A stretch of DNA of 64,000 nt from a virus (Duplodnaviria > Heunggongvirae > Uroviricota > Caudoviricetes): the IMG/VR virus record IMGVR_UViG_3300012352_000310, positions 1 through 64,000 of that record. One strand, written 5' to 3'. The notes beneath the pieces are model-generated. The model was not told where the DNA came from. It did no database searches and saw only the letters and a list, made by a program, of their open reading frames with translations. Below, one piece after another: positions 27,573 to 63,864 of the stretch. Both the position numbers and the translations under genes were made by a program. Positions within the stretch are counted from its first letter, which is position 1; every line of letters starts with the position of its first letter.

Positions 27573-27595
27573 TTGGTTTCCTTAGTCTATGGATA

Positions 27596-27906: not shown

Positions 27907-27930
27907 TTGGTTTCCTTGATTTGATGGATC

Positions 27931-35469: not shown

Positions 35470-36129
35470 TTATTGTTCCTCTTGTTTGTGCCATACTTTT
35501 CCTGATGCTAAAACTATCTGGCAGATATGCTCTAAACGCTCGATGTGTTCAAAAGCTCTCCAAGGAGAAGTGTCGATTGATACTACACCGTGACCTTTAA
35601 TGCCGACAATATCGTAACTGATATTTCCTTCAGAATCCAAGCCTAGATTTTCATGACATCTGTCTGCCAGTTCTTGACTAATTGGAGGGACATCTGGTAC
35701 GTTTTTAGCGACTTTAGTATATCTGCCAAGTTCTGGGAATTCTTTTACTAATTCGCTTAACTCGATTCCAGCATGCATCGCTGCTACACAATATGTAGGG
35801 TGAAAATGCATTACCACTCGCACATCCTCTGCGTGCTGACCCATACTCTTTTGTAGACCAAAATGTAGAGGCAATTCGCCACTTGGCCTTAAATTTGCGC
35901 TGATATCAGTGTAAGGTAACTCAATTGGAATAGGCGTGACATGATTGCCTCTACTAATTCCAATCTTCTTAAACTGATCTGGTTGCATGGTCTGTTTACG
36001 AACACCAGACGGTGTCACGTAGAAGTGATCTCGATCATGATGTCTGATAGAAACGTTACCATCACGACTGGTAATCCAGTTGCGACGATAAGCTTCTACC
36101 ATAGTTTCGCAGATTGTTTCTAACATCAC
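35470..36129 (-). CDS. class II aldolase/adducin-family protein (fuculose-P aldolase / ribulose-5-P 4-epimerase fold)
   Basis: 219 aa; NVSIR and zinc-ligand HFHPTY motifs. Confidence 0.7.
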   Translation of the reverse strand: MMLETICETMVEAYRRNWITSRDGNVSIRHHDRDHFYVTPSGVRKQTMQPDQFKKIGISRGNHVTPIPIELPYTDISANLRPSGELPLHFGLQKSMGQHAEDVRVVMHFHPTYCVAAMHAGIELSELVKEFPELGRYTKVAKNVPDVPPISQELADRCHENLGLDSEGNISYDIVGIKGHGVVSIDTSPWRAFEHIERLEHICQIVLASGKVWHKQEEQ

Positions 36130-37274
36130 GTATTCCTTAAGATATCTATCATCACTTTTGCAAGCTGCTTAAACCATGCTTCGTCATGACCACGAGTTGT
36201 TTCTGCTGCAACACCAATACGTACTCCACTAGTTTCTGCAAAGCTACGAGTCTCTCCAGGTACACCATTCTTATTCACAGTAATACCATGCTCTTCTAGA
36301 ACATCAGCATACTCGCGGCCGCTCATCTTTTCATTGGTGAGATCGATCGTAAACATATGACATGCAGTACCACCACTCACGATTTTGACACCCGATTGAA
36401 TAAATGCTTCAGCCATTGCATTAGCGTTTGCTCTCACTCTATATGCGTATTCAGTGAATTCAGGCTGTAGAGCTTCATAAAAACATTGAGCTTTACCAGC
36501 AATGATATGCATCAATGGACCACCTTGAGTTCCGGGAAACACAGCTGAATTCAGACGTCTTGTGTAATCTGGGTTATTCCACAAGATCAATCCACCACGA
36601 GGACCACGCAAACCTTTATGAGTTGTAGTAGTTACAACGTCTGCATAAGGGAATGGGCTTGGATACTGACCACCTGCAATAAGACCAGAATAATGAGCAA
36701 CGTCTGCTAGGAGTAGAGCGTCAACTGAGTCAGCAATTTCACGGAATCTAGCCCAATCAATTACTTGGCTATAAGCACTAGCTCCAGCGATGACCATCTT
36801 TGGTTTTACAAACTGAACTAATTCTTGAACAGCATCATAATCAATAAAGCCATTCTTATCTACACCATAACTATGAGCGACGAACCATGAGCCACTGATA
36901 TTCACTTGAGCTCCATGACTCAAATGACCGCCACTAGCTAGATCCATACTTACTACAGTATCATTTGGCTTTAAGAAAGCTTTGAATACTGCTAGGTTAG
37001 CGTTAGCGCCTGAATGTGGCTGAACGTTTGCATACTCACAACCAAACAACTTAGTAGCATATTCGATTGCAATATTTTCAATCTCATCTACGTTAGAGCA
37101 TCCGTTGTAATATCTTTTTCCAGGTAAGCCTTCAGCATACTTGTTAGTAAGAATACTACCACATAAGTCCATCACTGCTTGGCTTGTATAATTTTCACTA
37201 GCGATCAACTCGATAGTGCTTTTCTGTCTGATGCCTTCATTTAATAAGGCTGTGTGAATTCTTTGATCAATCAT
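36126..37274 (-). CDS. glyA: serine hydroxymethyltransferase
   Basis: 382 aa; ELIASENYTS signature, PLP-lysine region TTTTHKGLRGPRGG. Confidence 0.9.
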   Translation of the reverse strand: MIDQRIHTALLNEGIRQKSTIELIASENYTSQAVMDLCGSILTNKYAEGLPGKRYYNGCSNVDEIENIAIEYATKLFGCEYANVQPHSGANANLAVFKAFLKPNDTVVSMDLASGGHLSHGAQVNISGSWFVAHSYGVDKNGFIDYDAVQELVQFVKPKMVIAGASAYSQVIDWARFREIADSVDALLLADVAHYSGLIAGGQYPSPFPYADVVTTTTHKGLRGPRGGLILWNNPDYTRRLNSAVFPGTQGGPLMHIIAGKAQCFYEALQPEFTEYAYRVRANANAMAEAFIQSGVKIVSGGTACHMFTIDLTNEKMSGREYADVLEEHGITVNKNGVPGETRSFAETSGVRIGVAAETTRGHDEAWFKQLAKVMIDILRNT

Positions 37275-37543: not shown

Positions 37544-38718
37544 TCTTTCTCCAGTATATCAGCAATCATCTCAGCGGTACATGGAGATAGTGTCCAACCT
37601 AAGTGTCCATGTCCTGTGTTTAGATATACTTTCTCTCGCTTGCCTTTGCGAACGATTGGAAGCATTGAAGGAGTCATTGGTCTTAGACCAGCCCAAGGTT
37701 TATAGTCTCGAGTATCGATCTTTGGAAAGTTAGTGTGTACCCAATTCAACAGCGGATCAATGCGATCTTTGCGAATATCTAGATTCCAACCATCCAACTC
37801 TGCCGTGCCTGCAACTCTGAATCTATCTCCAAGAGTCGATGTAACGATCTTAGCTTGATCGTCAAGCATAGATGTAGTTGGAAAGTTCTCTGGATTATCT
37901 CGGATAGTAATTGAATAACCCTTCACAGGGTATACATTGATTGACTCACCAAACATTCTAGCAACACGAGCTGAATCAGATCCAGCACAGATAATGATCT
38001 TGTCGTAGCTATATTCTAGATGTTCTGAGTACGCAGAATCGATTTCAAAACTATAATTAAACACAACACCACGTTCTTCAAGCCAATCTGCTAGTTGGTT
38101 ACAGAACTTATGTATATCACCCATCGCATCTGATTCTGTCCAGATACCGCCGATGATATCTGAAGAGACTTCAAGCTTTGGTTCTAGCTTTTTAATCTCT
38201 TCTGGGGTCACAACCTTACGTTCTAAGTCAGTGTATCGGTATATGCTTTCCATTGCATATAACGCATCTGAATAATAACCTGAATCTTTATAAAAATGTA
38301 GAATACCATTCTTACTTAGATCGAATTGAATTCCGGTTTCGTCTGCAATCTGGTAGTATAACTCGCGAGCAGTCATACCCATAGCGATAGTTTCCCAAGT
38401 GTTGCTACGCTTGTTAAACTCACCTTTATATACTTGATGCATGAAACCAGCAATCCATTTGAGCTTTGCTGGTGATAGGCTTGGTCTGATTAAGAAAGGA
38501 GCATCTGGAGTAAACATCCATTTGATTCCTTTCTTAACATTAGACCAGCTGGTCCATGTTTCAGAATTAGAAACACTTAGTTGGCCGCCATTGGCATAAG
38601 ATGTTTTCATCCCAGCGTATGGCTCTTTATCAAATACTGATACTTGATGGCCTCGTTTTACTAATGAATATGCTGTAGTGATGCCAGTGATGCCAGCACC
38701 TATCACCGCGACTCTCAT
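37540..38718 (-). CDS. FAD-dependent oxidoreductase (DAO family: glycine/D-amino-acid oxidase or MnmC-like)
   Basis: 392 aa; N-terminal Rossmann MRVAVIGAGITGITTAYSL..VFDKE. Confidence 0.7.
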   Translation of the reverse strand: MRVAVIGAGITGITTAYSLVKRGHQVSVFDKEPYAGMKTSYANGGQLSVSNSETWTSWSNVKKGIKWMFTPDAPFLIRPSLSPAKLKWIAGFMHQVYKGEFNKRSNTWETIAMGMTARELYYQIADETGIQFDLSKNGILHFYKDSGYYSDALYAMESIYRYTDLERKVVTPEEIKKLEPKLEVSSDIIGGIWTESDAMGDIHKFCNQLADWLEERGVVFNYSFEIDSAYSEHLEYSYDKIIICAGSDSARVARMFGESINVYPVKGYSITIRDNPENFPTTSMLDDQAKIVTSTLGDRFRVAGTAELDGWNLDIRKDRIDPLLNWVHTNFPKIDTRDYKPWAGLRPMTPSMLPIVRKGKREKVYLNTGHGHLGWTLSPCTAEMIADILEKE

Positions 38719-39904: not shown

Positions 39905-41712
39905 CCTTCACAAGCTAGGCACGCGCCATCATCTGTAGTAAGTGCATTCAAATCGATTTCTTTAATAACTTCACGTTCGATACGCTTAGAAACTTTATCA
40001 GCTTTAGCGATCTTATCTGAACGGCAGTAATACATAGTCTTCAACTTTAACTTCCAAGCCATAAAGTGCACAGCATGGATATACTTAATGTGACTGTCTG
40101 GTCGGAAGAATACATTCAATGATTGAGCTTGATCGATGTACTCTTGACGATCAGCTGCATGTTGAACAACCCAGCGCTGATCAATTTCCATTGAAGTCTT
40201 GAACACATCACGTTGCCAATCATCAAGGAATTCCAAGTGTTGTGCCGAACCATCATTAGCGATAACTGAAGACCAAGTGTCTTCATACCAACCTTCTTTA
40301 TGATTAACAGCTTCAGCTCTGATCAGTGCATCAAGAAATTTATTCTTGTTTAAGTGAGAACCCGATAGAGTGTCTTGGCGATAAGCATTGGCGCGATAAG
40401 GTTCAATGCTAGGGCTAGTATTGCCCATGAGAATGGAAGAAGAAGCATTGGGAGCAATAGCCATGAGATGACTAAAGCGATTGCCAGTGCCTTTAGCATC
40501 TGGTGCTTCACCACGTTCATATCCCAATTCCTTATTAGCGACATCTAGTTTACCTCGAATGTTCTTGAAGATTGATTTATTAAGACCAACAGCCATTGAA
40601 GATTCCCAAGGGATGTTCTTCTTTTGTAGCAGAGCATGGAAGCCAAGGGCACCAATGCCAATTGATCGTTCACGTATTGCGCTGAACTTTGCGCGTTCAA
40701 TGCTGTCTGGGGCATTGTCAATAAAGTATTGAAGAACGTTATCCAACATTTCAGCTACGTCGCGTAAGAACTGTGGATGATCTTTCCATTCATCATAATA
40801 CTCTAGATTCAAAGAACTCAAGCAGCAGACAGCAGTGCGTTGTTCGTTAGTTGGTAGAATGATTTCAGAGCACAGATTAGATTGATGAACCTTCAATCCT
40901 TGGTCTTTTAACCACTGAGGAAGCTTACGATTGGATTCATCGATAAAGTGAATGTATGGCTCGCCTGTTTGCATACGCAGATCAAGAATCTTTTGCCATA
41001 GTTCACGAGCAGATACTACTTCACGAACTTCACCACTGTGCGGATCTTTTAGTTCCCAGCTGTCGTCAGCATGAGCATCGAGCATTGATCGCTCGATGAT
41101 TTCCATAAAGCTATCTGGAATATTGATACCATGATGCAGGTTGAGAGTACGCATATTTTGATCGCCTGTTGGCTTACGCATCTCAAGGAAAATTAGAATA
41201 TCAGGATGACTAATGTCAAGATAAGCAGCATAGCTACCGCGGCGAGTACGGCCTTGGCGGTAAGCAAGAGAAGATGCATCATACATCTTAAGATGTGGCA
41301 TAACGCCGGTAGACTTATCATCAGCAGCACGAATACCAAAACCAATTCCAACACCGCCTCCTAACATTGATAGCCAATTAGTCTCACTTAGGTTCTGCAC
41401 TAGACCTTCTGCAGTATCTTCAATGTAATTGAGGAAACATGAAATAGGCAGACCACGCTTACTGCGGCCAAAAGAAAGAATGGGAGTGCTATAAGAGAGC
41501 CAATGAGTTGAACTGTACTCATATAATCGTTGCGCATGTGCTGGGTTACTCCCGAATTTTGACGACACGAAAGCGAATCGCTCTTGAGGACTAACCTCGT
41601 CATCTTTCATGTAACTTTCTTTTAATCGAATCTTACCCAGTTCGTCGAACAACTCGTCTCTGGCAAGGTTCACTTGGATTCCGTGAACTACATCAGTCAT
41701 ATTATACTCCAT
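39901..41712 (-). CDS. nrdA: ribonucleotide reductase class I large subunit (short form, no ATP cone)
   Basis: 603 aa; active-site NLCSEI, C-terminal Cys pair CLACEG. Confidence 0.85.
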   Translation of the reverse strand: MEYNMTDVVHGIQVNLARDELFDELGKIRLKESYMKDDEVSPQERFAFVSSKFGSNPAHAQRLYEYSSTHWLSYSTPILSFGRSKRGLPISCFLNYIEDTAEGLVQNLSETNWLSMLGGGVGIGFGIRAADDKSTGVMPHLKMYDASSLAYRQGRTRRGSYAAYLDISHPDILIFLEMRKPTGDQNMRTLNLHHGINIPDSFMEIIERSMLDAHADDSWELKDPHSGEVREVVSARELWQKILDLRMQTGEPYIHFIDESNRKLPQWLKDQGLKVHQSNLCSEIILPTNEQRTAVCCLSSLNLEYYDEWKDHPQFLRDVAEMLDNVLQYFIDNAPDSIERAKFSAIRERSIGIGALGFHALLQKKNIPWESSMAVGLNKSIFKNIRGKLDVANKELGYERGEAPDAKGTGNRFSHLMAIAPNASSSILMGNTSPSIEPYRANAYRQDTLSGSHLNKNKFLDALIRAEAVNHKEGWYEDTWSSVIANDGSAQHLEFLDDWQRDVFKTSMEIDQRWVVQHAADRQEYIDQAQSLNVFFRPDSHIKYIHAVHFMAWKLKLKTMYYCRSDKIAKADKVSKRIEREVIKEIDLNALTTDDGACLACEG

Positions 41713-42589
41713 TTGTTTTGTAAATTTCTCGCTCCCACAATTTACGATACTGGATCCAACCTTTCAAGTTACCATGCAACGATTCATCTTGCCAGCTGGA
41801 CATCTGTCCCCTTGGAGCTGCGACAAGAATGTCTGGTGTTGCTTGGTGTTCAAGTGGACTCGCATGTAGTGGTACAGCGCCCGCTAGTCTCTGGAACAGG
41901 AACAAGTCTTCATCTTTGTTCGCTTTCGTTCCGTCGTGTTTTAAGTAACTTACACGACAGCATCGTGCAGCACTAATTTTTGCCAACATATTACTATTCG
42001 CGTTGGCTTCGATCTTGTAGAATGGATCTTCCAATTCCTCGTCTGTTATATATGGCAGATGCCATTGGCCCGGTTCGAGCAATCGAGGAGTAGAAGCATT
42101 TCTAGCTTCGATCATACGTAAAGCTAATTCATGTATTTCTGGTTGAGCGTCTTCATGTGCACGAAGCTCATCCCAGTTATCAAATTCAGTTGCCGTAACG
42201 ACACCATGAGCCCAAAGATACGGCTCAATAGTTCTGTTTACGATTTGTTTGTGTGTACCAAGCAGTGACATTGACTCAGCATAGAATGCAGCATGAATAG
42301 CTGCTTGACGCCATTGCTCTTTTACACCGCTTCGTGTCAGTGCATCAAGCTCTTCTTTGGCTTGCATACCTGCTTGATTCTTTCCCCAATGAACAGGCAA
42401 AGCAGGATCTGTGCGAACCTGCTCTAGTAATTTTGCTGTGGGGATTGCTCGACTTGAGCTGAAATTCCGAGAGAACACTCGGTGTGTATTGAATTCCGGT
42501 AGAATGAATCTATGGAACTTCACCTGCATCGTGGTGATGCGTTTGCCTGCCGCAGAAATGCTATCGGCAATAATTTTTGCTTCTATCAT
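41702..42589 (-). CDS. thyX: flavin-dependent thymidylate synthase
   Basis: 295 aa; THRVFSRNFSSSR matches ThyX RHRx7SxR motif; AHEDAQPEIHE resembles H-AQWE motif; occupies T4 td position next to nrdA. Confidence 0.7.
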   Translation of the reverse strand: MIEAKIIADSISAAGKRITTMQVKFHRFILPEFNTHRVFSRNFSSSRAIPTAKLLEQVRTDPALPVHWGKNQAGMQAKEELDALTRSGVKEQWRQAAIHAAFYAESMSLLGTHKQIVNRTIEPYLWAHGVVTATEFDNWDELRAHEDAQPEIHELALRMIEARNASTPRLLEPGQWHLPYITDEELEDPFYKIEANANSNMLAKISAARCCRVSYLKHDGTKANKDEDLFLFQRLAGAVPLHASPLEHQATPDILVAAPRGQMSSWQDESLHGNLKGWIQYRKLWEREIYKTNGV

Positions 42590-48353: not shown

Positions 48354-51077
48354 TTATTTTGTATAGCTCTTGTGTGCTAGACGATCGTTTTCAATCTTAC
48401 GCACTCTTGGAGCCATCTTCATAGCTAATCTATTTATGACAGCTTTACGACGCTGAATGATTCGTTCAATACGTTCTTTTTCTGCAACAGATAGTTTGTC
48501 TAATGGTTTCTTAGCTATGCGCTGCTTCATAGATTGAATAGCTAAGCGACGGGCGCGTTTATTTATGGTAGCTGTGCTGGAACGTGATTTCAATGCGATC
48601 TTAATCTTACGTTCACGCTTAGATTGAGTACGAGCAAATCTAACTTTAGCTCTCATACGTTCCATACGAGATAGAACTTCGTTCAATACTTCTTCAGCTA
48701 TATCTTCGATGTGTTCGCCTGTCTCGTCATCAACAAGAGCTAGTTCATCATCTTCATAAGCATCTAGAATATCGTCTTCATCTTCTAGATCACTAACGAT
48801 CTTATCCATCTCGTCGTCAGTTAGATCTAATTCGTCGCCAAGATCTTCTACTTCTTCTGAAGTCTTAGTTAATCCAAGTGTTAGATCGTCTTCGTCATCA
48901 GGAATATCTTCTTCAGTTCCTTCTTTTAGACGTTCTTTTTCTGACTGTTGCTTTGTTGCTAATGATGCTTTTTCTTGAGCATGCTTAACTTGAAGTTGAG
49001 CTGCTTCATGTTTTTTCTTAGCTGCTTCAACAGGATCGGCTTCTTCAGTTCTATATGCAACCTTCATTCTACGAAGGTGATGGTTATCTTCTGGAGATAC
49101 CATTGCATGACCAACTTGGTTTGGTTCTTGAACGATAGTGTCACTATCAGATTCATCGTCTTTTACGCTACGAACTTTAGACAACTGCTTCTGCAATACA
49201 GAAGTATCTTTACCAAGTGTTTTAGCTGTAGCGATTTCTTCTAGAATCTTAGAGATTTCTTCTTTAACATGCTTCTTAAGGTCGTTAGCAAACTGCTTAT
49301 TAGTTGCTTTCATAATACCAGAAAAACGCTTGTTGCCTTTCTTGAAGTCACCGGCTTTGTCTGCAGCAGATGCATCATCAGAAGCAGCTTTCTTGTAACG
49401 ACTTAACAGATCGGTAGAAAGTTCGTTAACAACTTCTTCATGAGCTAGTTTTCTCATTCCAGGATCAATGCTGCCATTATTATCGTAGCGATGCTGTACA
49501 CCTTTTTTACCAGATTTTTGTAAATCTTTCATAGCCTTGTCGGCGTCTGCATAGTTTTTGTGGGTGCTTGTCTTAATCCAATCGCCACGTGAATTACGAT
49601 AACCTACGTGAATGGTTTCTTCAGATACTTTCTGTGGTACTAACTTATCATCGTACTTAATTTCTGCTTCTTTAGCAGTCTGTAGCATCTTATGAAGCAC
49701 TTCAACATACTCAGGACGCATAGGTTTGCTGCGTACTTTACGTAGAGCATTGTTGATTAGTTGTTCTGGATTGGAAGACTTTTCTACGTCTTCAAGGCCT
49801 AGTGCCGAAGCAATGACACGCGCGACTTTGATCTTATCTGTAGCGTTGAATTTCATTTCTATTAGTTGTCCTTCTAGTTCTACTGAATCTGCAAATTCCG
49901 CGCCCTGAGTCTCAGGAGTGAAATTGTTCTCCATGTCTTGGATTTCGTGTTCATGAGTATGCCAATAGTCAAAGTGGTGCATGAACTCTCCAATACGATT
50001 TAGAGAATCTCTAGCCTTATCATGTGCGTCATGCCATGCCGCCAATTCGGCAGCTTCAGGTACCTTGTCCTGTTGCAAATGCGAATCGTTGATTTTCATG
50101 TAAGTGTCGGTCGACTTAAGTGCGTTTAGGATCGCGACAGCGTCCTTAATTTGTCCAGCGTTATAACGTTGGATTGTAGTTTGAAAGGCTTTAGTGGCAT
50201 CAGCTGAATGATGAAGATTCTTTGTCTTGTAACCCTTAAACGATATTTCTTCTGGCGCTTGACCAGTTGGGATGTCTTCCGCGATGAACGTCGGCTGAAC
50301 TGAATCTAACCACTTTTTACTGATGTCGCCAGATTCATTGACTACAGTTACGTAGTTAGCACCTCTATCGACAACCTCATACACTGACTCACCATCGGTG
50401 ACTTTGTCACCAACATTAAAAATCTCTCCTGCATGATACTTCTCACGAAGTTCGTTGCGCTCAAACTTAACTTGCTCTTTGATAACATCCATTCCCAAGC
50501 CTTGACGAATTTCATTCATCAAGCGCTTACCATCGATGTCTGTTAGGGTATGTGGAAGACCCTTCTTGAATAACTGATAGTCACCCTTCTTTGCGGCTTC
50601 ACGCATCTTAGTGCCAGACATACCGGCTGCGTTGTCAGCATCTGGATCGCGTTCACCAGCAGAAACAACTTCAATAGTTTCGAAGTTGAATGCATCAGTG
50701 CCGTTATACTTCTCTAAAATTCTCTTATACTCAGGAACACGATCGGAACCAGCGAGCATGACAAGATGCTTGTACTTCTTTGACAAAGCACCAGCAGCTT
50801 CAATGAATGTTCTGATTTGTTCGTTTGCCGCGACGAAGTTCGTCTTCGGAAACATTTTCTTAAGATAGTAGACTTTACGATCTACTTGGAGAGGATTAGA
50901 CTTTTTGTCTTGAGTGCGCGAAGCAAAGATGATATGGTCGGCTTTTTGTTTGCCGGCAATCTTTTTGACTGCGTTGACCAATAGCTCGTGACCATTTGTA
51001 GGCGGTTGGAATCTACCAAACGCCATGACGACCTTCTTAGAAGGCAGTTCTTGTACTAACTGTCTGTATGCTTTCAT
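48354..51077 (-). CDS. large late protein: N-terminal NMNAT/cytidylyltransferase-like domain fused to ~730-aa charged coiled-coil region
   Basis: 907 aa; MAFGRFQPPTNGH (HxGH-type) and MSGTKMREA (ISST-like) motifs in first 170 aa; late promoter 30 nt upstream. Confidence 0.7.
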   Translation of the reverse strand: MKAYRQLVQELPSKKVVMAFGRFQPPTNGHELLVNAVKKIAGKQKADHIIFASRTQDKKSNPLQVDRKVYYLKKMFPKTNFVAANEQIRTFIEAAGALSKKYKHLVMLAGSDRVPEYKRILEKYNGTDAFNFETIEVVSAGERDPDADNAAGMSGTKMREAAKKGDYQLFKKGLPHTLTDIDGKRLMNEIRQGLGMDVIKEQVKFERNELREKYHAGEIFNVGDKVTDGESVYEVVDRGANYVTVVNESGDISKKWLDSVQPTFIAEDIPTGQAPEEISFKGYKTKNLHHSADATKAFQTTIQRYNAGQIKDAVAILNALKSTDTYMKINDSHLQQDKVPEAAELAAWHDAHDKARDSLNRIGEFMHHFDYWHTHEHEIQDMENNFTPETQGAEFADSVELEGQLIEMKFNATDKIKVARVIASALGLEDVEKSSNPEQLINNALRKVRSKPMRPEYVEVLHKMLQTAKEAEIKYDDKLVPQKVSEETIHVGYRNSRGDWIKTSTHKNYADADKAMKDLQKSGKKGVQHRYDNNGSIDPGMRKLAHEEVVNELSTDLLSRYKKAASDDASAADKAGDFKKGNKRFSGIMKATNKQFANDLKKHVKEEISKILEEIATAKTLGKDTSVLQKQLSKVRSVKDDESDSDTIVQEPNQVGHAMVSPEDNHHLRRMKVAYRTEEADPVEAAKKKHEAAQLQVKHAQEKASLATKQQSEKERLKEGTEEDIPDDEDDLTLGLTKTSEEVEDLGDELDLTDDEMDKIVSDLEDEDDILDAYEDDELALVDDETGEHIEDIAEEVLNEVLSRMERMRAKVRFARTQSKRERKIKIALKSRSSTATINKRARRLAIQSMKQRIAKKPLDKLSVAEKERIERIIQRRKAVINRLAMKMAPRVRKIENDRLAHKSYTK

Positions 51078-56446: not shown

Positions 56447-57349
56447 TTACTTATTCTTGACTTCTGTCTTGAAAGTTCGGCCACCCATTGGATATATTGA
56501 AGCACGAGCGCCTTTAAGGCCCAATTGTGTTCTATCGCCTTTGTAGATAACAGCCAACACTGGCTCAAATCCACCGATGATTTTATCTGGCAAATAGTGT
56601 ATGTGACCCGTTGCAGTTAACTGAAAATCGCCAGTCGACATCTGCTTAAGTCCTGGATCACCTTGAATGAGAACGTCAACACGGTTTACGTCTAAACTTG
56701 CTTTATCGAAATTCACGCCGTATACTGACATCATCTTAAGCTTGTTGTCTTTGATCTTCATGTAAGCAGATTGACTGCTTGGCATAACACCGCCAGGATA
56801 CAACAGATTGACTTGTTGTTCAAAGTACTTTACTTCTGGATGATTTGCAATCTCTTTTTCAGTGATACCACCCCACTGTTGAAAGTCTTTTGGTGTGGAT
56901 CCCTTCTTATGAGAGATATGACAAACAGCTTTTCCACTTTCATCTACTAGGTGAAAGTCAGATTTTGGAGTGCCAGCAGTCTTTTCAACACCAACTATAT
57001 TCTTAACAGTGCGGCTCTTAAGCTTAACATTTATTGGACCGCCGTTAAGAATAACTGCTTGAATAACAGCTTCTTCCAACATAGCAATAGCTGCTGATTC
57101 TACATCAAGACCACCAGTACGCCCTGATGCTTTGATAGTGATCTTAACATTGCCAACTACGATACCACCGATAGAAGAACCTTTTAGATTTCTGTCTACA
57201 ACAGCGCCAAGATTAGATAACATCTCTGCGAGCTCGAGCATCTTCTTTACTCGATCACCATCGACTAATACTACTATGCTTGTGCGGGTCTTACTCTTTA
57301 GAGTATAGCCTTTAGTGGCTAAGTAATCCGCTAATTGCATTCCATCCAT
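56447..57349 (-). CDS. hypothetical protein (late)
   Basis: 300 aa; ATGA overlap with upstream late gene. Confidence 0.55.
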   Translation of the reverse strand: MDGMQLADYLATKGYTLKSKTRTSIVVLVDGDRVKKMLELAEMLSNLGAVVDRNLKGSSIGGIVVGNVKITIKASGRTGGLDVESAAIAMLEEAVIQAVILNGGPINVKLKSRTVKNIVGVEKTAGTPKSDFHLVDESGKAVCHISHKKGSTPKDFQQWGGITEKEIANHPEVKYFEQQVNLLYPGGVMPSSQSAYMKIKDNKLKMMSVYGVNFDKASLDVNRVDVLIQGDPGLKQMSTGDFQLTATGHIHYLPDKIIGGFEPVLAVIYKGDRTQLGLKGARASIYPMGGRTFKTEVKNK

Positions 57350-58269
57350 TACTCAGCAGAGCCTTTTAGAGATGTTGCAATTGGAGTGCTTTCTGGCTTT
57401 AGACGGTGTCTTAAGAAAGTCTTGCCGTTATGCTTAAATTCAATTGAGTTGTTGCCAGACTTATGAACTGTGATATTCTTTGGATCATTTAAGATATGAT
57501 CGTGAGATGTTGCCGAATGTTCAGTGTCTACACTGTGGTCGTCTCCGCTTCCACCAGTTGTAGTCTTGTACAATGGAAGCTTAGTTTCATGAGCATGCAA
57601 TAGATTGTTTCTGATATGATCGCTTAATGCTTTTGGATGCATTTGAGAAAGTGAGTGGTGCCACTCATCGCGAATCTTACCTATAGCAGCATTGGATAGT
57701 TTTTCAGCAGTTTCACGGAACTTAGGATTGTCTTTAATGGCTTGCTTCATTTCAACCTTAGACATTCCTTGAAGCTCTTTATGCTTCTTGATCATCTCTT
57801 CGCGTGCATCATCATAGTGCTTAACTGCATTAGTTCCAAGTTGTTGGTCTGTTTGCTTTGCACCAGGATTTCCGACAGGAACTTTACCATTCTTTTTCTT
57901 GGTGACTTTTAAAGAGATACCAACGTGAGCTCCATTCTTGTGTCGCAAGATAATGTCAGCAGAGTTCTGTTGCTGTGTCTCTTCTACACCAGTAATTCTA
58001 CCTATGTCTCCTGGCTTAGAAGACCAGTGAGCAGAAGCAATACCGTCACCAAACTTTTGGCGTAGATGGTCTGCTGTGCCTTTTGCCATTTTAACGTGGT
58101 CTTTGTACTCTTCTGGAGTCATGCGCTTTTTTATCTCATCGTGAGTGCGCTCTGCCTCTGGAGACATATGCTTACCGTGGTTTAGTTCTTTACCGGTAAG
58201 AATTTCGTGGATAACACCTTTATCGTTAGACGATACGGCTTCCGTTAAAAATGAGATAAAAGTTTTCAT
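57349..58269 (-). CDS. hypothetical His-rich protein (late)
   Basis: 306 aa; late promoter 30 nt upstream. Confidence 0.55.
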   Translation of the reverse strand: MKTFISFLTEAVSSNDKGVIHEILTGKELNHGKHMSPEAERTHDEIKKRMTPEEYKDHVKMAKGTADHLRQKFGDGIASAHWSSKPGDIGRITGVEETQQQNSADIILRHKNGAHVGISLKVTKKKNGKVPVGNPGAKQTDQQLGTNAVKHYDDAREEMIKKHKELQGMSKVEMKQAIKDNPKFRETAEKLSNAAIGKIRDEWHHSLSQMHPKALSDHIRNNLLHAHETKLPLYKTTTGGSGDDHSVDTEHSATSHDHILNDPKNITVHKSGNNSIEFKHNGKTFLRHRLKPESTPIATSLKGSAE

Positions 58270-58306: not shown

Positions 58307-58332
58307 AAAAGAAAAGCCCCTTGCGGGGCTTT
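58304..58332 (-). terminator. rho-independent terminator ending the upstream early operon
   Basis: hairpin AAGCCCC-TTGC-GGGGCTT followed by U-rich run on minus strand. Confidence 0.7.
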
Positions 58333-58334: not shown

Positions 58335-59561
58335 TTAGATGAACTCTTCTAGTGAAGTTCTGGGAGCTGTATCCCTTATTTCGTAAGTCTTGTTTCCATT
58401 ATATTGGTAGATAAGATCTCCATTTAGCCAATCTCTCTTACCATCCAAGGCGTCTTTGATCTCGTTTGCCATATCGCTAGCAGTGGTAACTGGAACGTTT
58501 TGACACACATGATTCAAGTTACGGCTAGGATTGAGCAACTCGAAGTCATATGGAAGTCCCATTAAACTCATTGCTTCTCGATACGTTATATAACGATCTT
58601 CATCGGGGTGCGTGAGGTTGGTTGGTAAGTGTCCGACGAAGGCTCCAATGTAATTAGCTGGAATAACAGAAGACCTACGCATAATATTACCACCAGCAGC
58701 CAACTTTGTAGCAATAGCTTCACACTTTGTAGCAACTTTTGGATAATCATTCGCTTCCATCCACTTCTTTACTTGCCAGTAATCAGTTTTAGATTCAATC
58801 CAGTCCATAGCGTCTACGGACTTGGTCAATTTTTTCACAAACTCTTGATGAGTGATTCCACCTTCTAATTCTTCTAGAACATATCGATAGTAAGGATCAT
58901 CTTTAGACGGGATCTTCTTATTCGTGACTTCATGCTGTGTTAGATCTTTTGGTATCTCACGGATAGCATCTTCGATTCGTTTGTTCGCACGATCAAAGTA
59001 GTTGAACAAAGGCACTTGGTTGCCTTTCCAAAAGAAGTAGAATGAACGTTCACGAACTTGGCTCAATCCATGCAGAAGAGACTTTGTACGATAGATCGAC
59101 ATAGTGTAACCCTGTGCTGAAGCAATTACACGAAGTTTATCTACAATAGGCTTACCCATTTCGCCTGCGAATCGAGGAGCATTCTCTCCCCAAAAGACTT
59201 TCGGTTTCATCTCTTCTAAAACATACTTCGCCGTAGTTGTCATCCAATCGTTCACAGCTGCTTCAGAATTTGCAGAAGTAGAAAGAGAAGAAAGACCAGC
59301 ACATGGGCAAGTTGCACCAACAACATCGACATAATGAGGATGGCGTCCACCTTGGTCTAGAAGAATGTATGGAACGTCTTTATAGTAGTTGACTAAGTGT
59401 GAGTCGTTACTAGAGAATGGCGAATACGACAAAAGGTAGTCTGGACGACTACCAAATGCTTTTTCTTGACCGAGTGGAAGTCCCCCAATTAGAGGGACAA
59501 TTGCTGCATGTTTAAACAAAGAAAGACTCCAAAGTATCAGTTGGCTTTTGAGATGATTCAT
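58335..59561 (-). CDS. DNA C5-cytosine methyltransferase-family protein (divergent)
   Basis: 408 aa; GATCPCAGLS (motif IV PC), GENAPRF (motif VI ENV-like), QVRER (VIII), REAMSLMGLPYDF (motif X). Confidence 0.6.
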   Translation of the reverse strand: MNHLKSQLILWSLSLFKHAAIVPLIGGLPLGQEKAFGSRPDYLLSYSPFSSNDSHLVNYYKDVPYILLDQGGRHPHYVDVVGATCPCAGLSSLSTSANSEAAVNDWMTTTAKYVLEEMKPKVFWGENAPRFAGEMGKPIVDKLRVIASAQGYTMSIYRTKSLLHGLSQVRERSFYFFWKGNQVPLFNYFDRANKRIEDAIREIPKDLTQHEVTNKKIPSKDDPYYRYVLEELEGGITHQEFVKKLTKSVDAMDWIESKTDYWQVKKWMEANDYPKVATKCEAIATKLAAGGNIMRRSSVIPANYIGAFVGHLPTNLTHPDEDRYITYREAMSLMGLPYDFELLNPSRNLNHVCQNVPVTTASDMANEIKDALDGKRDWLNGDLIYQYNGNKTYEIRDTAPRTSLEEFI

Positions 59562-60333
59562 ATGCTTTCTTATGCTGAATCACCGTTCCATATTTAGTCA
59601 ACCCTTTCCAAGGGCCGCTTGGTACTTTCTTCTCAGTTAGCTTGATAAAGTTAGGCCACAGATCAGCCAACTTCTTTTGAGCTTCGTTATGCACTTCAAT
59701 AGTGCGCCAAGTAGAACATCCACCAGCAGCGTTAGTCTCAGAACAGGTTACCATGTATTTAGCGCTGATACGATTCTTAAATCCACGAGTCAGCAATTGT
59801 AGATTCACATCAAAGTCTTCTGCTGCAGCAACACGATTCCATTCGATGTCCGTTGGAATACGAGGGCCATCATAGAAAACGTTTGTCATGATACGTTGGC
59901 ATTCACGTACTGGCCATTGCTTAACATCTGGAATAACCCAAGCAGGCAGCAATCCACCGTAAGCAATACCTTCGTCCATCCAAGTATCGCACAGACCAAA
60001 TGCATCGTCAAAGTCTTGATCACTGAACTTTCGGCTCAACCACTTAGTGCCTTCACCGGGATTCGGTTCTTTTACTACGAAGTCAAGATCATCGTCAAAC
60101 ACAAAATGCCTAGAATCGCGAAACCGATTGAAGATCCATTCTCGAGTAGGCGCAATGCGATTGATTTCTGCAGGAAGTCGTAGTACTTTTCCTGGATAGC
60201 GTTTTTCCATTTCGTCATATTCATGCTCCTGTACGACAAAGGTTGTAATATTCTTGTACTTTTCTGGCAAGTTACCATACGTGACTTGTTTGTCCATACG
60301 TCCAAGAGTCGGGATTACGATGTGTTGAATCAT
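59512..60333 (-). CDS. GT-A-like glycosyltransferase candidate
   Basis: 273 aa; N-terminal VIPTLGR (GT2-like) and FDDDLDF DxD motif. Confidence 0.45.
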   Translation of the reverse strand: MIQHIVIPTLGRMDKQVTYGNLPEKYKNITTFVVQEHEYDEMEKRYPGKVLRLPAEINRIAPTREWIFNRFRDSRHFVFDDDLDFVVKEPNPGEGTKWLSRKFSDQDFDDAFGLCDTWMDEGIAYGGLLPAWVIPDVKQWPVRECQRIMTNVFYDGPRIPTDIEWNRVAAAEDFDVNLQLLTRGFKNRISAKYMVTCSETNAAGGCSTWRTIEVHNEAQKKLADLWPNFIKLTEKKVPSGPWKGLTKYGTVIQHKKAYESSQKPTDTLESFFV

Positions 60334-60710
60334 TTAAGATAGTCCTTACATTCTGAGATAATTTTTGCTTCGAACGCTTTATCATTCAAGAGCCTGTTCA
60401 AAGGAGAAGGATGAGGCAACTTGAAATGAGATACGTTGATTGTATTTAGTGCGCTCGAAACGAAGCCACCTAATGCTATTATTTTATCATAGTCTTTAGA
60501 TACAGTACATAGTCGTTTGAAGTCAATACGAACAGTTTTGACTTGACCTGGAGCATCAATTACATTCATGAAAGAAAAGTGCTTAACTCCGAAAGTATTC
60601 ATCCATGACTCAAGCTTAGTAAACGTTGGACCCTTTTTAGTTTTAAGATCACGACTGCTTGGATTCATTCCAATAACTAATAGCTTCATACTTTTTCTAC
60701 TTGCCAGCAA
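60330..60710 (-). CDS. uracil-DNA glycosylase superfamily protein (SMUG-like, short)
   Basis: 126 aa; motif A VIGMNPS and motif B HPSPLN. Confidence 0.5.
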   Translation of the reverse strand: MLASRKSMKLLVIGMNPSSRDLKTKKGPTFTKLESWMNTFGVKHFSFMNVIDAPGQVKTVRIDFKRLCTVSKDYDKIIALGGFVSSALNTINVSHFKLPHPSPLNRLLNDKAFEAKIISECKDYLK

Positions 60711-60883
60711 TGTGATGTGCCTTTAATTCCGTCGTCGTACTGCAACTCTAAATTTCCCCAGAATGATTCTGGGTAATCCCAATGTAGTGTCTGTTTAATA
60801 ACTGTAGCTTCTTGTCGCATTGGGTGAACATACACTCTATCGCCTGGAAGAAACTTTGGAGGATTTCCGTTTGAGTCTTTCAT
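60686..60883 (-). CDS. hypothetical protein
   Basis: 65-aa ORF. Confidence 0.4.
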   Translation of the reverse strand: MKDSNGNPPKFLPGDRVYVHPMRQEATVIKQTLHWDYPESFWGNLELQYDDGIKGTSHCWQVEKV

Positions 60884-61221
60884 ATTCTTTTCACATATAC
60901 TACTAAACCAAGCTTAGTAGCGGTTTCAATCATGTTCTTTGTTCCGCGGGACTTACCGTCCCATATTGCAATCAGTGCATCAGCGTTTTCAGCCATTTTT
61001 CTATTTCTTAATGGACCTGCAGCTCTGCCATGACGTTCCCAATCAGCTTCATAGATATGTAGTGTCAGATTCATGTTCATGGCGTACTGCTCACCTAAAG
61101 CATCTACACCTTTAGCTCCACCTGATACAACAGTAGTGATGTTTAGATTAGCTTCTTCGATAGCATCTAACACTAATTGGTAGTCGTGGATCTCTCTTCC
61201 ACCAGCGATAATAGTCTTCAT
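60880..61221 (-). CDS. SLOG/DprA-like Rossmann-fold protein (DUF2493-like)
   Basis: 113 aa; IIAGGRE...SGGAKGVD...GPLRNRKM pattern. Confidence 0.5.
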   Translation of the reverse strand: MKTIIAGGREIHDYQLVLDAIEEANLNITTVVSGGAKGVDALGEQYAMNMNLTLHIYEADWERHGRAAGPLRNRKMAENADALIAIWDGKSRGTKNMIETATKLGLVVYVKRI

Positions 61222-61670
61222 GGCGTAACGTAATCGTAAGTGACACTAGCTTCTTCAAACAAAGAACGAGTGCGTTCCCAGGATTCAACCCAGATCGGAG
61301 GAATAACGTCATCGACCAAAAACACTACGTGTCTAATACCAACTTGAATAATACCCTTTGCGCACTCACTACATACTGGAAGTCCATATACAAACATAGT
61401 TGAATCTGCAAGCGAGGTACCATTTAAGCAAGCGTTGAAGATAGCATTCATCTCGGCATGTACTACATACTTGTACTTAGTTTCGCGATCGCTCAATCTA
61501 TCTTGGTTATCTGCGATTCCTCGTGGAAAGCCATTGAATCCTTGGGCAAGGATTTGTCCTTTAGACCCAACAGCGACAGCACCAATCTTTCTACTTGGAT
61601 CTTTACTCCAAGTAGAAATATGTTTTGCCAGCTGCAGGTAGTTGTTACGCCACTTGATGGATTCTGTCAT
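61218..61670 (-). CDS. cd: dCMP deaminase
   Basis: HAEMNAI zinc motif and PCSECAKGI; start trimmed to internal ATG. Confidence 0.75.
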   Translation of the reverse strand: MTESIKWRNNYLQLAKHISTWSKDPSRKIGAVAVGSKGQILAQGFNGFPRGIADNQDRLSDRETKYKYVVHAEMNAIFNACLNGTSLADSTMFVYGLPVCSECAKGIIQVGIRHVVFLVDDVIPPIWVESWERTRSLFEEASVTYDYVTP

Positions 61671-62367
61671 ATTCTTCCTTAGTAATATGAACTTCACCGG
61701 TTGCAATGTAATGGTCAACGAGATAGAACTGTCGATCATAGATATGTAGAGATCCAACGTTCCAATGAATATCACCAATCTCTACGTTAAGATCGATTGC
61801 AAGAGCTGCTAACACATGGTATTGCCAAGCATAATCGTTGCGGTAACCAGCCCAAGCATCATTAGAACGCATTTGTACGATTGCATTCAATTTACCTTTT
61901 CTCAAGATGTATTGAACTGCATTAGTACACATGAAGTCAGATCGACCATTTTCGTTATAATCTGTCCACATGTTTGGACGAGTATAGATCATTGTTGCGC
62001 GACGAGAATCTGGATTCTTTTGTAGTTCTGCTAGAACGTTCTTGTACTGCGATCCATTAGCGCTGTTGTATACACACCAACCGTAGTTAGAATTGATTCG
62101 ACCATTCTTGCAAGCAACTTGTTGCCAGATCTTTGGTGCACCACCGGGAATGTCGTTCACATAAAGAGATTGAGACATATACCAGTCAAGTTCGCGTTGA
62201 ACATAATCTTCGTTCACTGCACCAAAGATCATTTCCTCGTCGGCAAGAAATGATGCCCCAACGATCTCAATGACTCTACCACCGAACTTATCAGTTACGA
62301 ATTCGCCATCATCATATAGTGCTGCAAACTGATTGCGAATATCTTCTACTGAGTTAATAAAAATCAT
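61645..62367 (-). CDS. deoxycytidylate (pyrimidine dNMP) hydroxymethylase, ThyA family (T4 gene 42-like)
   Basis: 240 aa; NPDSRRATMIYTRP and DFMCTNAVQY...MRSNDAWAGYRNDYAWQ; catalytic Cys, Asp in RNDY; lacks ThyA N-terminal domain. Confidence 0.7.
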   Translation of the reverse strand: MIFINSVEDIRNQFAALYDDGEFVTDKFGGRVIEIVGASFLADEEMIFGAVNEDYVQRELDWYMSQSLYVNDIPGGAPKIWQQVACKNGRINSNYGWCVYNSANGSQYKNVLAELQKNPDSRRATMIYTRPNMWTDYNENGRSDFMCTNAVQYILRKGKLNAIVQMRSNDAWAGYRNDYAWQYHVLAALAIDLNVEIGDIHWNVGSLHIYDRQFYLVDHYIATGEVHITKEEYDRIHQVA

Positions 62368-62882
62368 TTTGAGTCCTTCTTCATAGAGATGTCGTAGATG
62401 TCGTATTGGCTTACTTTGGTATCTTGGTTGAACACACTATAGCCGCTTAGCCATTCTGTACCCGAAGCGTTGATTGTAATAGTATTTTCTTGCTGGCGGA
62501 ATTTAGTTGGTACTAAACTAGTTTGAGTGCCATTAGTTACTGGTCGATTGAAAACATCGTGAGCTGGATTTTGGCCAGGAACGTCACCACGCATATAAGC
62601 TGCGATGAATGAAGCATAGTTGATAAGATCGATAGCAGAATCTTCGATAGATTCGAAGTTAGCTTTACCGCCTTGTTCCATAGTTTCCAGAACAGAAACC
62701 ATACGCAAGTATTTTGCATTCACTACATCGAGGATAGACCATACACCACGTGGATAATAGTCTGCTTGTTCAACAGATGTTTTGGCGCCATTGTAATCAG
62801 CACCTTTCTTTTCTTGCAGTTCTGCTGCTTCTAGCAGAATATTTGCTGAGGGGCGAGAGTATTGTTTAGTCATTCGAACCAT
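62364..62882 (-). CDS. DUF1599-like nucleotide-modification-associated protein
   Basis: 172 aa; KKGADYNG...YPRGVWSILDVVNAKYLRMVSVLE. Confidence 0.4.
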   Translation of the reverse strand: MVRMTKQYSRPSANILLEAAELQEKKGADYNGAKTSVEQADYYPRGVWSILDVVNAKYLRMVSVLETMEQGGKANFESIEDSAIDLINYASFIAAYMRGDVPGQNPAHDVFNRPVTNGTQTSLVPTKFRQQENTITINASGTEWLSGYSVFNQDTKVSQYDIYDISMKKDSK

Positions 62883-63310
62883 CCTAAAGTTTCAGATTTT
62901 GAGAAATTTCGCATTATTTCAGCGAGCTTTGGGTGTTTTACGCTTTTAAGTAAAACCATTTTGTCAATCGGCCAACATGCCATCACACGGCCGTCATCCA
63001 TAGTTGAACTGAATACACTTCTACGGTCAACACATTCCCATATTAGAATTGTATCACTAAGACTGTATTCTATGAAAATCAAACGATCGACGTATAGACA
63101 CTTCTTTAAGTTATTACCGTTGCCGTATGATCTGTTTACAGTAAAAGCGTTTGAGTGCCTGTATCGACTTTGAACTTTGATCTCTACTTGTTTTCCGTCG
63201 CTTTGCACGAGGTCTTTTTCGCCGTCATATTTGTATTCTGACAGAAGGCCACCAAATAAAGCTTGATAGTAGATTTCACCGATAGTGCCAAGGATTTCTT
63301 GATCAGTCAT
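62870..63310 (-). CDS. hypothetical protein
   Basis: 146-aa minus ORF. Confidence 0.45.
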   Translation of the reverse strand: MTDQEILGTIGEIYYQALFGGLLSEYKYDGEKDLVQSDGKQVEIKVQSRYRHSNAFTVNRSYGNGNNLKKCLYVDRLIFIEYSLSDTILIWECVDRRSVFSSTMDDGRVMACWPIDKMVLLKSVKHPKLAEIMRNFSKSETLGWFE

Positions 63311-63810
63311 CGCATAACTTCTCTACAAAATGGAAGATCTTCACCATGCATCATTGCCTCTTGAATAATAAGTTGTTCATTATCTTCAGCAGTTTCTATT
63401 TCAACAGTACATGTCAGACCTGTGATAAGTGAATTGATTTCCATTACTATGCGAGGAGACTGTATAGCATAAACATCTAAAGAAGAGTGCTTATTGTCAA
63501 TCATGTAATTGTAGATCTTACGAGTAGTGGGATCCCAAGTTTCTTTGCCGTTCTTGTTGTATCGCTTTTTAGTATATTCTTGAGAACGTTGGTACCAACC
63601 AGTGCCAGATTTTCCAGCAGCTTTTCCAATCTTCATCAGCTTTTTGCCGACGAAAAAGAAATAGACCACATCACCCAAAGTACGAAAATACTTTGTTTTA
63701 ATGCGGCCTGAAGAACTAGCTTGTGTTGTGACAAATTTTATTTGATCTTTAGCGAATGTTAGCTTTCCGATAAATTCAGCTTTAGATTTGATTTTTTTCG
63801 CATATGACAT
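63307..63810 (-). CDS. GIY-YIG-like nuclease candidate (T4 DenA/endonuclease II-like)
   Basis: 167 aa; VVYFFFVGKKLMKIGKA resembles GIY...YIG core as in T4 DenA. Confidence 0.4.
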   Translation of the reverse strand: MSYAKKIKSKAEFIGKLTFAKDQIKFVTTQASSSGRIKTKYFRTLGDVVYFFFVGKKLMKIGKAAGKSGTGWYQRSQEYTKKRYNKNGKETWDPTTRKIYNYMIDNKHSSLDVYAIQSPRIVMEINSLITGLTCTVEIETAEDNEQLIIQEAMMHGEDLPFCREVMR

Positions 63811-63832
63811 AATATACCTCGCACGTATGATA

Positions 63833-63864
63833 TATTATACAACATACTCGATTATTTGTACAAT
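63833..63864 (-). promoter_or_regulatory. early promoter module driving the 63810-58335 operon
   Basis: TATTATACAACATACTCGATTATTTGTACA. Confidence 0.6.

Follow-up and report, generated by a model that had tools for sequence, protein, structure and literature searches.

The T4 paradigm of phage DNA modification, in which 5-hydroxymethylcytosine (hmC) is made at the nucleotide level and glucosylated afterwards, dates back 70 years, and some apparent orthologs of its enzymes have recently been found to hide new chemistry, such as 5-hydroxycytosine and carboxymethylcytosine. What product should then be expected of an operon that joins a close homolog of the T4 hydroxymethylase gp42 to genes that T4 lacks, one of which encodes a protein with the fold of a DNA cytosine-C5 methyltransferase (C5-MTase)? 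Here we address this question for such an operon in a 64,000-nucleotide stretch of viral DNA (positions 1 to 64,000 of the IMG/VR record IMGVR_UViG_3300012352_000310, Caudoviricetes), referred to throughout as the window.

An initial annotation, made from the sequence alone, had read the operon as a pathway to DNA containing hmC or a further-modified base, with a glycosyltransferase decorating the hydroxymethyl group. Homology supports that reading (60% identity to gp42, diagnostic residues, a glycosyltransferase of the TAGT family), and we put at roughly 70% the probability that the operon specifies a T-even-type system, in which hmC would be made on the nucleotide before replication and glycosylated afterwards. 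The system as a whole is supported as a T-even hmC/glycosyl-hmC pathway that appears to be combined with a solitary TAGT, a minimal protein of the uracil-DNA glycosylase (UDG) superfamily, a DUF1599 partner, a serine hydroxymethyltransferase (SHMT) and a conserved, atypical C5-MTase-fold enzyme. The last of these, already singled out initially as the odd element of the operon, indeed has no obvious role in a T-even-type pathway.

A predicted pathway to glycosylated hmC

The case for hmC is carried mainly by the ThyA homolog of the operon (Table 1), which matches T4 deoxycytidine monophosphate (dCMP) hydroxymethylase over residues 6-233 (E=1.2e-89; 60% identity over 228 residues) and shares 60-63% identity with gp42 proteins from T4-like enterobacterial phages. 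The catalytic Cys and the RNDY Asp on which a gene-42-like assignment had been based are both in place: DFMCTN aligns with T4 Cys148, the equivalent of E. coli C146, and YRNDYAW carries the Asp at the position of E. coli N177. Work on the “gp42-like” enzymes of RB69 and DLP3, which proved to be flavin-dependent 5-hydroxy-dCMP synthases (PMC13326640, 2026), has provided diagnostics for the chemistry of such proteins: Asp at E. coli N177 indicates dCMP, not dUMP, as the substrate; an acidic residue at L143 indicates a product other than methyl (hydration, not reduction); and Asn replacing D169 indicates 5-hydroxy-dCMP, all tested synthases of that product having Asn. Like T4 gp42, and like its own relatives, the window enzyme has Asp at all three positions (YRNDYAW, SDFMC and RSND, respectively). 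Because of these residues and the identity to gp42, the ThyA homolog is predicted to make 5-hydroxymethyl-dCMP.

Could the ThyA homolog make some other C5-modified dCMP, either 5-hydroxy-dCMP as in RB69 and DLP3 or 5-methyl-dCMP as in Xp12, with the sugar attached by other means or not to the base at all? The RB69-like enzymes shown to make 5-hydroxy-dCMP had themselves been annotated as dCMP hydroxymethylases (PMC13326640), and deaminase-linked ThyA homologs from metaviromes often make 5-methyl-dCMP (bioRxiv 10.1101/2024.12.05.627091). We nonetheless consider this very improbable here. RB69 gp48 reads RSQN where the window enzyme reads RSND, and the two are 24% identical, as against the 60% shared with T4 gp42, and a 5-hydroxy-dCMP synthase of the RB69 gp48/DLP3 gp80 type was rejected on these grounds; the residue at L143 is Asp, as in hydroxymethylases, and not a bulky hydrophobic one; and the operon contains no genes for nucleoside diphosphate (NDP)-arabinose.

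In the T-even-type pathway that we propose, the gp42-type enzyme would convert dCMP and 5,10-methylene-tetrahydrofolate (methylene-THF) to 5-hydroxymethyl-dCMP, the dCMP deaminase would turn part of the dCMP pool into dUMP for dTMP synthesis, and hydroxymethylated dCTP would be incorporated into DNA, where the TAGT enzyme, of GT-A fold, would glycosylate hmC; for these steps the homology is strong. Around this core, methylene-THF may be recharged by the phage SHMT, and dCTP may be destroyed by a MazG-like pyrophosphatase whose gene lies just beyond the position of the right window edge in the closest relatives. The minimal UDG-like protein would remove uracil or 5-hydroxymethyluracil arising from deaminated C or hmC, cleavage of unmodified DNA may fall to the GIY-YIG protein, and the DUF1599 protein would be an obligate, uncharacterised partner of the hydroxymethylase. 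The deaminase call made initially stands, with a likely start at ATG 61670, not TTG 61778 (homologs have 142-159 residues). The palindromes GATC, GGCC, CCGG and GCGC are not strongly avoided in the window, which fits global modification but is not diagnostic of it.

The glycosyltransferase had been described as GT-A-like with a DxD motif, and both features hold, the motif being DDD and the family TAGT. The protein is 28-32% identical to annotated phage glucosyltransferases, and the phrog_842 profile that it matches is labelled “beta-glucosyl-HMC-alpha-glucosyltransferase”; its sequence found no match in the Protein Data Bank (PDB). As a glycosyltransferase acting on hmC it is a candidate by family membership only. 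The TAGT of T2 and T6 puts the second glucose onto glucosyl-hmC, not the first, and solitary TAGTs unaccompanied by an alpha- or beta-glucosyltransferase (AGT or BGT) are common but uncharacterised (PMC13216743). In related loci, the slot just upstream of the MTase-like gene holds a T4-type AGT (PF11440), a TAGT, or an unannotated protein of ~360 residues; proteins of the last kind match phrog_14998 (“unknown”) alone, and have no similarity to T4-type BGT or, across clades, to one another.

The gene for SHMT lies 22 kb from the operon, and homologs occur in just 50 of 50,697 phage records. Because the gp42 reaction draws on methylene-THF and yields THF, a phage SHMT would suit a high hydroxymethylation flux; from this known reaction, it is probable that SHMT supplies 5,10-methylene-THF to the hydroxymethylase, and its presence points to one-carbon supply as limiting for hmC synthesis in the hosts. 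Its neighbours are genes for a class II aldolase (35470-36129), a DAO-family FAD (flavin adenine dinucleotide) oxidoreductase (37540-38718), ribonucleotide reductase (RNR) beta and alpha, and a weakly ThyX-like protein. The DAO and aldolase genes may have a part in the metabolism of glycine or of one-carbon units. The ThyX-like open reading frame (ORF), of 295 residues (41702-42589), lies immediately upstream of RNR alpha; its match to ThyX is sub-threshold (PF02511, E=5e-4), and it could provide the route from dUMP to dTMP fed by dCMP deaminase.

As for removal of dCTP, an ORF truncated by the right window edge shares 89% identity with the C-terminus of a 320-residue protein, which in relatives is preceded by a MazG-like PRA-PH gene, directly so in the closest long relative (L004). 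In 35 related loci such a gene precedes the cluster, and its family profile matches the MazG-like nucleoside triphosphate (NTP) pyrophosphohydrolase DR2231. By synteny, we infer that a PRA-PH gene sits just beyond the right window edge. Experiments have established a neighbourhood of ThyA(Asp) and dCMP deaminase, with PRA-PH, as a mark of modified cytosine in metavirome contigs and of full cytosine modification in phages (bioRxiv 10.1101/2024.12.05.627091).

The C5-methyltransferase-fold protein

Motifs IV, VI, VIII and X had first suggested a C5-MTase-family protein at the end of the operon. They are present, as PC (IV), ENA (VI), QxRxR (VIII) and QNVPV (X), and the family match is recorded in Table 1. 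The AlphaFold2 (AF2) model of the protein (pLDDT, the predicted local distance difference test, 94.7) is matched by Foldseek to M.HhaI with a template-modelling (TM) score of 0.71 and probability 1.0, and superposes also on DNMT1/MET1 and CmoX; the single sequence found no match in the PDB. Translation probably begins at TTG 59519, overlapping the glycosyltransferase stop, and homologs have 394-396 residues. At E<=1e-5 a word-index protein search returned 2,143 proteins, and identity is at least 68% throughout the best 120; when one representative of each 50%-identity cluster was searched exhaustively, 246 MTase-like proteins had E<1e-30. Close relatives are found in many metagenome and IMG/VR viral contigs, freshwater metaviromes such as IMG 3300020048 among the sources; among isolated phages, homologs are found only in S-TIM5-group cyanophages, Pseudoalteromonas phage XG4 and Bacillus phage G.

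Across 251 aligned sequences, the catalytic residues are nearly or fully invariant (C73 in 250; E112, R156 and R158 in all 251), and the Q340-N341 pair of motif X places Asn at the HhaI N304 position in 244. Motif I reads P-L-I-G-G, not FxGxG; P-L-x-G-G is near-invariant, as are F35, N38, D39 and D55. Conservation of F35, which stacks on adenine in CmoX, of the motif III residue D55 and of N38-D39 argues for a retained adenosyl-cofactor pocket. With the machinery for attack of Cys on C6 intact and the adenine contacts conserved, a C5 transferase with an adenosyl cofactor is the most likely assignment, and our tentative proposal, held at a little short of even odds, is that the protein is an S-adenosylmethionine (SAM)-dependent DNA cytosine-C5 transferase acting on cytosines that escape replacement or on non-phage DNA. 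A carboxymethyltransferase of the CmoX type was considered and rejected: the motif is TCPC, not SPPC, the residue at HhaI N304 is Asn, not Arg, and the window has no CmoA-like match. Elsewhere in the database, one 598-residue protein (P0246) is a natural fusion of an MTase-like domain with a C-terminal zf-CXXC domain, the eukaryotic reader of unmethylated CpG.

How closely this gene is tied to the hmC pathway was surveyed in 80 IMG/VR loci with MTase-like homologs 53-70% identical. Of the 47 loci with at least 4 kb of upstream sequence, 44 have a gp42 homolog there, in the same orientation. When loci were dereplicated at 90% identity, leaving 24 clusters with at least 4 kb upstream, the upstream genes included a hydroxymethylase in 22 clusters, a deaminase in 20, a DUF1599-like gene in 16, a recognisable AGT or TAGT in 11 and a UDG-like gene in 10. 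It is conceivable, if somewhat unlikely, that the MTase-like gene is nevertheless an ordinary orphan anti-restriction methyltransferase, whose link to hmC stems from the genome synteny of one lineage and not from function. Orphan C5-MTases are common in phages, and most related loci come from a single T4-like lineage, with the genes for DnaB, the DUF6267 protein, ferritin and a 907-residue protein in the same order. The linkage, however, extends to homologs of 31-32% identity with other flanks: it is kept in phage XG4 (31%), in a JGI contig (32%) ordered DUF1599-ThyA-deaminase-...-PFK-...-MTase-UvsX, and in the S-TIM5 group, where in cyanophage S-TIM54 (L001) 2 kb separate the MTase-like gene from a ThyA homolog that has Asp at N177. 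One distant member (P0215, 33% identical; L095, positions 1061-10025 of a Logan SRR14039885 contig) fits the orphan interpretation better, lying in a different putative modification cluster with a second C5-MTase, a nucleoside 2-deoxyribosyltransferase, a PIG-L deacetylase, WbqC and ThyX, and with no ThyA homolog in view. Against that interpretation, in 46 of 71 loci a 4-nt overlap joins the stop of the preceding gene to the MTase-like start even though the family of that gene changes, and no conserved nuclease partner follows the gene. The “ThyA” annotated in the S-TIM5 group (L001 5156-5998) is itself worth recording: Asp at E. coli N177 and Cys at L143 suggest a dCMP-modifying enzyme, not a thymidylate synthase.

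Genes downstream of the MTase-like gene differ between related loci, which makes a restriction-modification pairing unlikely. A pair formed with the downstream genes for proteins of 306 and 300 residues was rejected for the same reason, and because these lie beyond the terminator, are assigned to no family and are not paralogs. The two genes (56447-58269) have no Pfam family; the 300-residue protein matches phrog_13937 (unknown function, 2e-52), with an empty PDB sequence search, and by eye both proteins show D...(S/I)xK stretches that recall PD-(D/E)xK nucleases.

Several results weigh against the reading that we favour, a T-even-type pathway accompanied by a SAM-dependent C5 transferase. Homologs of a dCTPase (gp56 or PRA-PH) and of the dNMP kinase gp1 gave no tblastn match in the 64-kb window, and gp1 has none in related loci either, so complete replacement of C is not established by the window. 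The TAGT is solitary, no AGT or BGT having been found in the window, and with the T2/T6 enzyme adding the second glucose, neither acceptor nor sugar is fixed by homology. With C fully replaced, phage DNA would offer a C5-methyltransferase no substrate; and an ordinary SAM-dependent C5 transferase leaves the conservation of the gene, its coupling to the glycosyltransferase and the lost ribose-binding Glu unexplained. The motif II acid, which binds the ribose of SAM, is lost in all 120 relatives at least 60% identical (no D/E at positions 32-34), while 24 of 70 and 24 of 49 more distant members keep D/E there. Finally, in PDB profile searches and in hhalign against E. coli Dcm, the family aligns from motif IV onward only.

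The same features invite a further reading, in which the MTase-fold enzyme is an integral hypermodification step that exchanges or removes the C5 substituent of 5hmC or glycosyl-hmC, or puts a C5 group on leftover C with a cofactor other than SAM. The loss of the motif II acid in the close relatives and an N-terminal cofactor half that profile searches do not recognise would fit it, as would the near-universal synteny with the hydroxymethylase beside a swappable glycosyltransferase slot; such a role would explain both co-inheritance and translational coupling with the glycosyltransferase. Phage G gp301 (26% identical) lies among two alpha-glucosyltransferases and a sugar nucleotidyltransferase. 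C5-MTases are reportedly able, in work from the Klimasauskas laboratory, to add and remove aldehydes at C5 and to derivatise 5hmC in vitro. The argument is wholly inferential, however, and the conserved adenine contacts F35 and D55 and the invariant G-loop point to an adenosyl cofactor, the Asn at HhaI N304 is that of true methyltransferases, and the window showed no accessory gene for cofactor synthesis of the CmoA kind. We judge this reading unlikely, and equally doubtful its broader variant, in which the protein would be a new base modifier of the hmC pathway, with a product that is neither 5-methylcytosine (5mC) nor simple glucosyl-hmC, and the DUF1599 and minimal UDG proteins would be undescribed components.

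Partner proteins, operon layout and other genes of the window

The DUF1599-like assignment made initially is confirmed at the family level, with 26 of 30 members matching PF07659. The window protein shares 63% identity with the product of the gene that immediately precedes the ThyA homolog in relatives, and the core of its AF2 model consists of three long helices (pLDDT >90). Foldseek returned nothing at E<1 for this model, the weak top matches including the MazG-like dCTPases RS21-C6 and DCTPP1 (TM 0.3-0.55), and the family profile gave spurious CodY matches alone in the PDB. A role as the missing dCTPase is not supported: hhalign against the MazG-like PRA-PH family of the relatives gave a probability of 0.3%, and there is no significant fold match. 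One 254-residue database protein (P0379) is a natural fusion of a PRA-PH/MazG domain and a DUF1599-like domain.

The SMUG-like UDG of the initial annotation likewise holds as a member of the UDG superfamily, since all 22 family members match PF03167 over almost the whole profile, with scores below threshold (best E 2e-4). The motifs G(M/I)NPS and HPSP(L/R)NR are invariant in the 22 sequences, as are, by residue, P17, N49, H100-P-S102, N105 and R106; we take these to resemble motifs of SMUG1 (GMNPG, HPSPRN) and UNG (HPSPLS). The protein is about half the usual length for the superfamily, its likely start is ATG 60689 (alternative 60710), overlapping the preceding stop as ATGA, and the family profile found no match in the PDB.

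The remaining operon proteins are less conserved. The ORF called a DenA-like GIY-YIG protein is real, and matches a phrog endonuclease profile (Table 1), but the DenA assignment is weak: the pairwise match to T4 DenA has E=0.005 over 55 residues of the GIY-YIG N-terminal part, Pfam, NCBIfam and a tblastn search of the 50,697 phage records gave no match, and none of 85 related loci has a homolog, which makes the gene accessory. The SLOG protein, also correctly identified at the outset, is accessory too, with a homolog in one related locus only. The 146-residue ORF has homologs at the same position in nine related loci; the 65-residue ORF has no significant family match and no homolog in related loci.

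Table 1. Features of the operon and the distant SHMT gene, in window coordinates, with the principal match or supporting observation for each.
Feature	Coordinates	Strand	Match or basis
Promoter, early-type, TTGTACA-N17-TATAAT	63834..63863	-	Top sigma-70-like site within 55-64 kb
Putative GIY-YIG nuclease, 167 aa, weakly DenA-like	63307..63810	-	phrog_1111 “endonuclease”, 9.4e-7
ORF, 146 aa, no assigned function	62870..63310	-	DUF6998 weak, E=6e-4, below threshold
Divergent DUF1599 (Nmad1) helical protein, 172 aa	62364..62882	-	Own match weak, E=0.063
Predicted gp42-type dCMP hydroxymethylase, 240 aa	61645..62367	-	Thymidylat_synt PF00303, 3e-17; PDB 1B49
dCMP deaminase, motifs HAE and PCxxC (zinc)	61218..61670	-	PF00383, 7.7e-19; phrog_174, 1e-39
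SLOG (YAcAr) Rossmann-like protein	60880..61221	-	PF10686, 1.5e-14; phrog_289, 3e-26
ORF, 65 aa, no assigned function	60686..60883	-	ORF call
Minimal UDG-superfamily protein, ~119 aa	60330..60689	-	Own UDG match E=0.002
TAGT-family GT-A DNA glycosyltransferase, 273 aa, DDD motif	59512..60333	-	PF20691, 6.7e-22; phrog_842, 8e-40
Divergent C5-cytosine methyltransferase-fold enzyme, 394 aa	58335..59519	-	PF00145 DNA_methylase, 1.6e-14
Intrinsic terminator	58313..58332	-	8-bp stem, 5 G-C pairs, then TCTTTTT; 3 nt past the MTase-like stop codon
Serine hydroxymethyltransferase (SHMT)	36126..37274	-	PF00464, 2.7e-144

The operon comprises ten minus-strand ORFs, running from 63810 down to 58335 and mostly joined by 4-nt overlaps of the ATGA type. 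All eight genes listed initially are real ORFs on that strand and in the order given; two were overlooked (63310-62870 and 60883-60686). TTGTACA-N16-17-TATAAT occurs six times in the window as an exact match, always on the minus (coding) strand, where chance predicts 0.02 copies; the single promoter proposed at the head of the operon is one of these. Such an excess indicates a real, phage-specific promoter class. With the promoter at one end and a strong terminator, with a G+C-rich hairpin, at the other, the operon is predicted to be a single, well-delimited early transcription unit. Other copies of the promoter motif lie at 1631-1660, at 17860-17889 and within 27081-27626. In the last region, three identical copies recur with an exact spacing of 258 bp, each upstream of a small ORF (27117-27314 and 27375-27572, ~65 residues each, and 27634-27972, 112 residues), and the region resembles a tandemly triplicated small-gene cassette.

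Nearly all genes of the window are on the minus strand, and the G+C content is 40-47%. The window carries T4-type genes for replication and nucleotide metabolism (RNase H, DNA ligase, RNR alpha and beta), as well as genes for a SegE-type GIY-YIG protein, Acb1, NAMPT and an NMNAT-Nudix protein. Its DUF6267 protein is nearest to those of Phage C48C1 (57%), the Methylophilales phages Melnitz, Stenotrophomonas phage DLP6, Pelagibacter phage HTVC008M and cyanomyoviruses, and megablast of the operon against the 50,697 phage records gave no nucleotide-level match. From these relatives, the T4-type genes and the lack of a nucleotide match to the operon, the source appears to be an uncultivated myophage of the T4 superfamily. 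Methylophilales or other freshwater Proteobacteria are candidate hosts of this phage clade.

Several other loci of the window are recorded here for completeness. An array of 30 tRNA genes occupies 5 kb (57-5025, minus strand) and includes two Met(CAT), one Ile(TAT) and duplicates of Asp, Glu, Phe, Tyr, Val and Ile(GAT). An NAD+ salvage pair (15382-17814) consists of NAMPT (NAPRTase and NAMPT_N) and a bifunctional cytidylyltransferase-like/NUDIX protein, as in KVP40-type T4-like phages. An Acb1-family anti-CBASS phosphodiesterase (PF23474, 1.9e-28) lies beside the SegE-type GIY-YIG endonuclease (PF19835, 4.5e-35) at 33182-34056. The 907-residue protein (48354-51077) is 40-45% identical to “cytidylyltransferase” genes of cyanomyoviruses and pelagiphages over its first ~260 residues, the other ~650 having no assignment; relatives carry it at the same position, 61-64% identical.

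Significance and comparison with known systems

The locus would place an hmC pathway in an abundant uncultivated phage lineage, together with three conserved partners that T4 lacks. No published account linking a C5-MTase to the hmC pathway, or treating DUF1599 in that setting, was found in the searchable literature. Were the MTase-fold enzyme to act within the pathway, it would open a new way to make hypermodified cytosine and be a candidate tool enzyme for 5hmC-directed labelling or sequencing of DNA; were it a plain methyltransferase, genomes of mixed 5mC and glycosyl-hmC, or modified host DNA, would be expected. Either outcome bears on the evasion of restriction, of type IV systems and of glycosylase-based defences. 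A role linked to hmC is on our estimate improbable, and its possibility is the reason that the locus merits experiment.

Among described systems, phage TET/JBP cassettes join a C5-MTase, a TET dioxygenase and a TET-associated glycosyltransferase (Burke et al. 2021, PMC8256090). They share with the window the pairing of a C5-MTase-family gene with a TAGT-family gene, and an expected end product of glycosylated 5hmC. In the window, by contrast, the ThyA homolog is predicted to introduce the hydroxymethyl group at the nucleotide level, and an MTase is not needed to provide a TET substrate; a TET/JBP-MTase-TAGT cassette was rejected, as no TET/JBP 2-oxoglutarate-Fe(II) dioxygenase was detected in the 50 window ORFs scanned with Pfam.

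In the CmoX/CmoA/CmoY system for 5-carboxymethylcytosine of cyanophage S-B43 (PMC12783734), a C5-MTase-fold enzyme has likewise been repurposed within a hypermodification cluster, and CmoX (PDB 8YF3) is among the best sequence and fold matches of the window protein. The two differ in having TCPC (window) versus SPPC and Asn (window) versus the carboxyl-binding Arg350; the Foldseek identity is 16%, and the window has no CmoA or amide ligase nearby. The 5-hydroxycytosine arabinosylation of RB69 and DLP3 (PMC13326640) resembles the proposed pathway in its neighbourhood logic, with a ThyA homolog initiating pre-replicative modification of C and glycosylation following on DNA. It differs in the D169N signature, which the window enzyme lacks, in the low identity of that enzyme to RB69 gp48, and in the NDP-arabinose synthesis genes, which the window does not have.

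The closest parallel is with the T-even phages T4, T2 and T6, for which the set compared comprised gp42, gp56, gp1, cd, the alpha- and beta-glucosyltransferases, the beta-glucosyl-HMC-alpha-glucosyltransferase of T2/T6 and EndoII/IV. The window differs from this set in lacking AGT, BGT, gp56 and gp1 homologs and in having its TAGT alone, while T4 lacks the DUF1599 protein, the minimal UDG and the C5-MTase-fold enzyme, having the adenine methylase Dam and no C5-MTase; the window phage also encodes SHMT. The likeness lies in the gp42 ortholog with the same diagnostic residues, the dCMP deaminase, a glycosyltransferase of the family found in T2/T6, the placing of hydroxymethylase and glycosyltransferase in one operon (compare gene 42 and beta-gt of T4) and a T4-superfamily background (RNase H, RNR and the tRNA array, with UvsX-type neighbours in relatives). 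A comparable picture emerges from the MetaGPA signature of ThyA(Asp177), dCMP deaminase and PRA-PH within 3 kb (bioRxiv 10.1101/2024.12.05.627091). Some of the deaminases described there act on modified dC nucleotides, and a term search of that paper returned no report of C5-MTase-fold, UDG-like or DUF1599 partners; the pair of ThyA(Asp) and deaminase is nevertheless present in the window, and the full trio in related loci.

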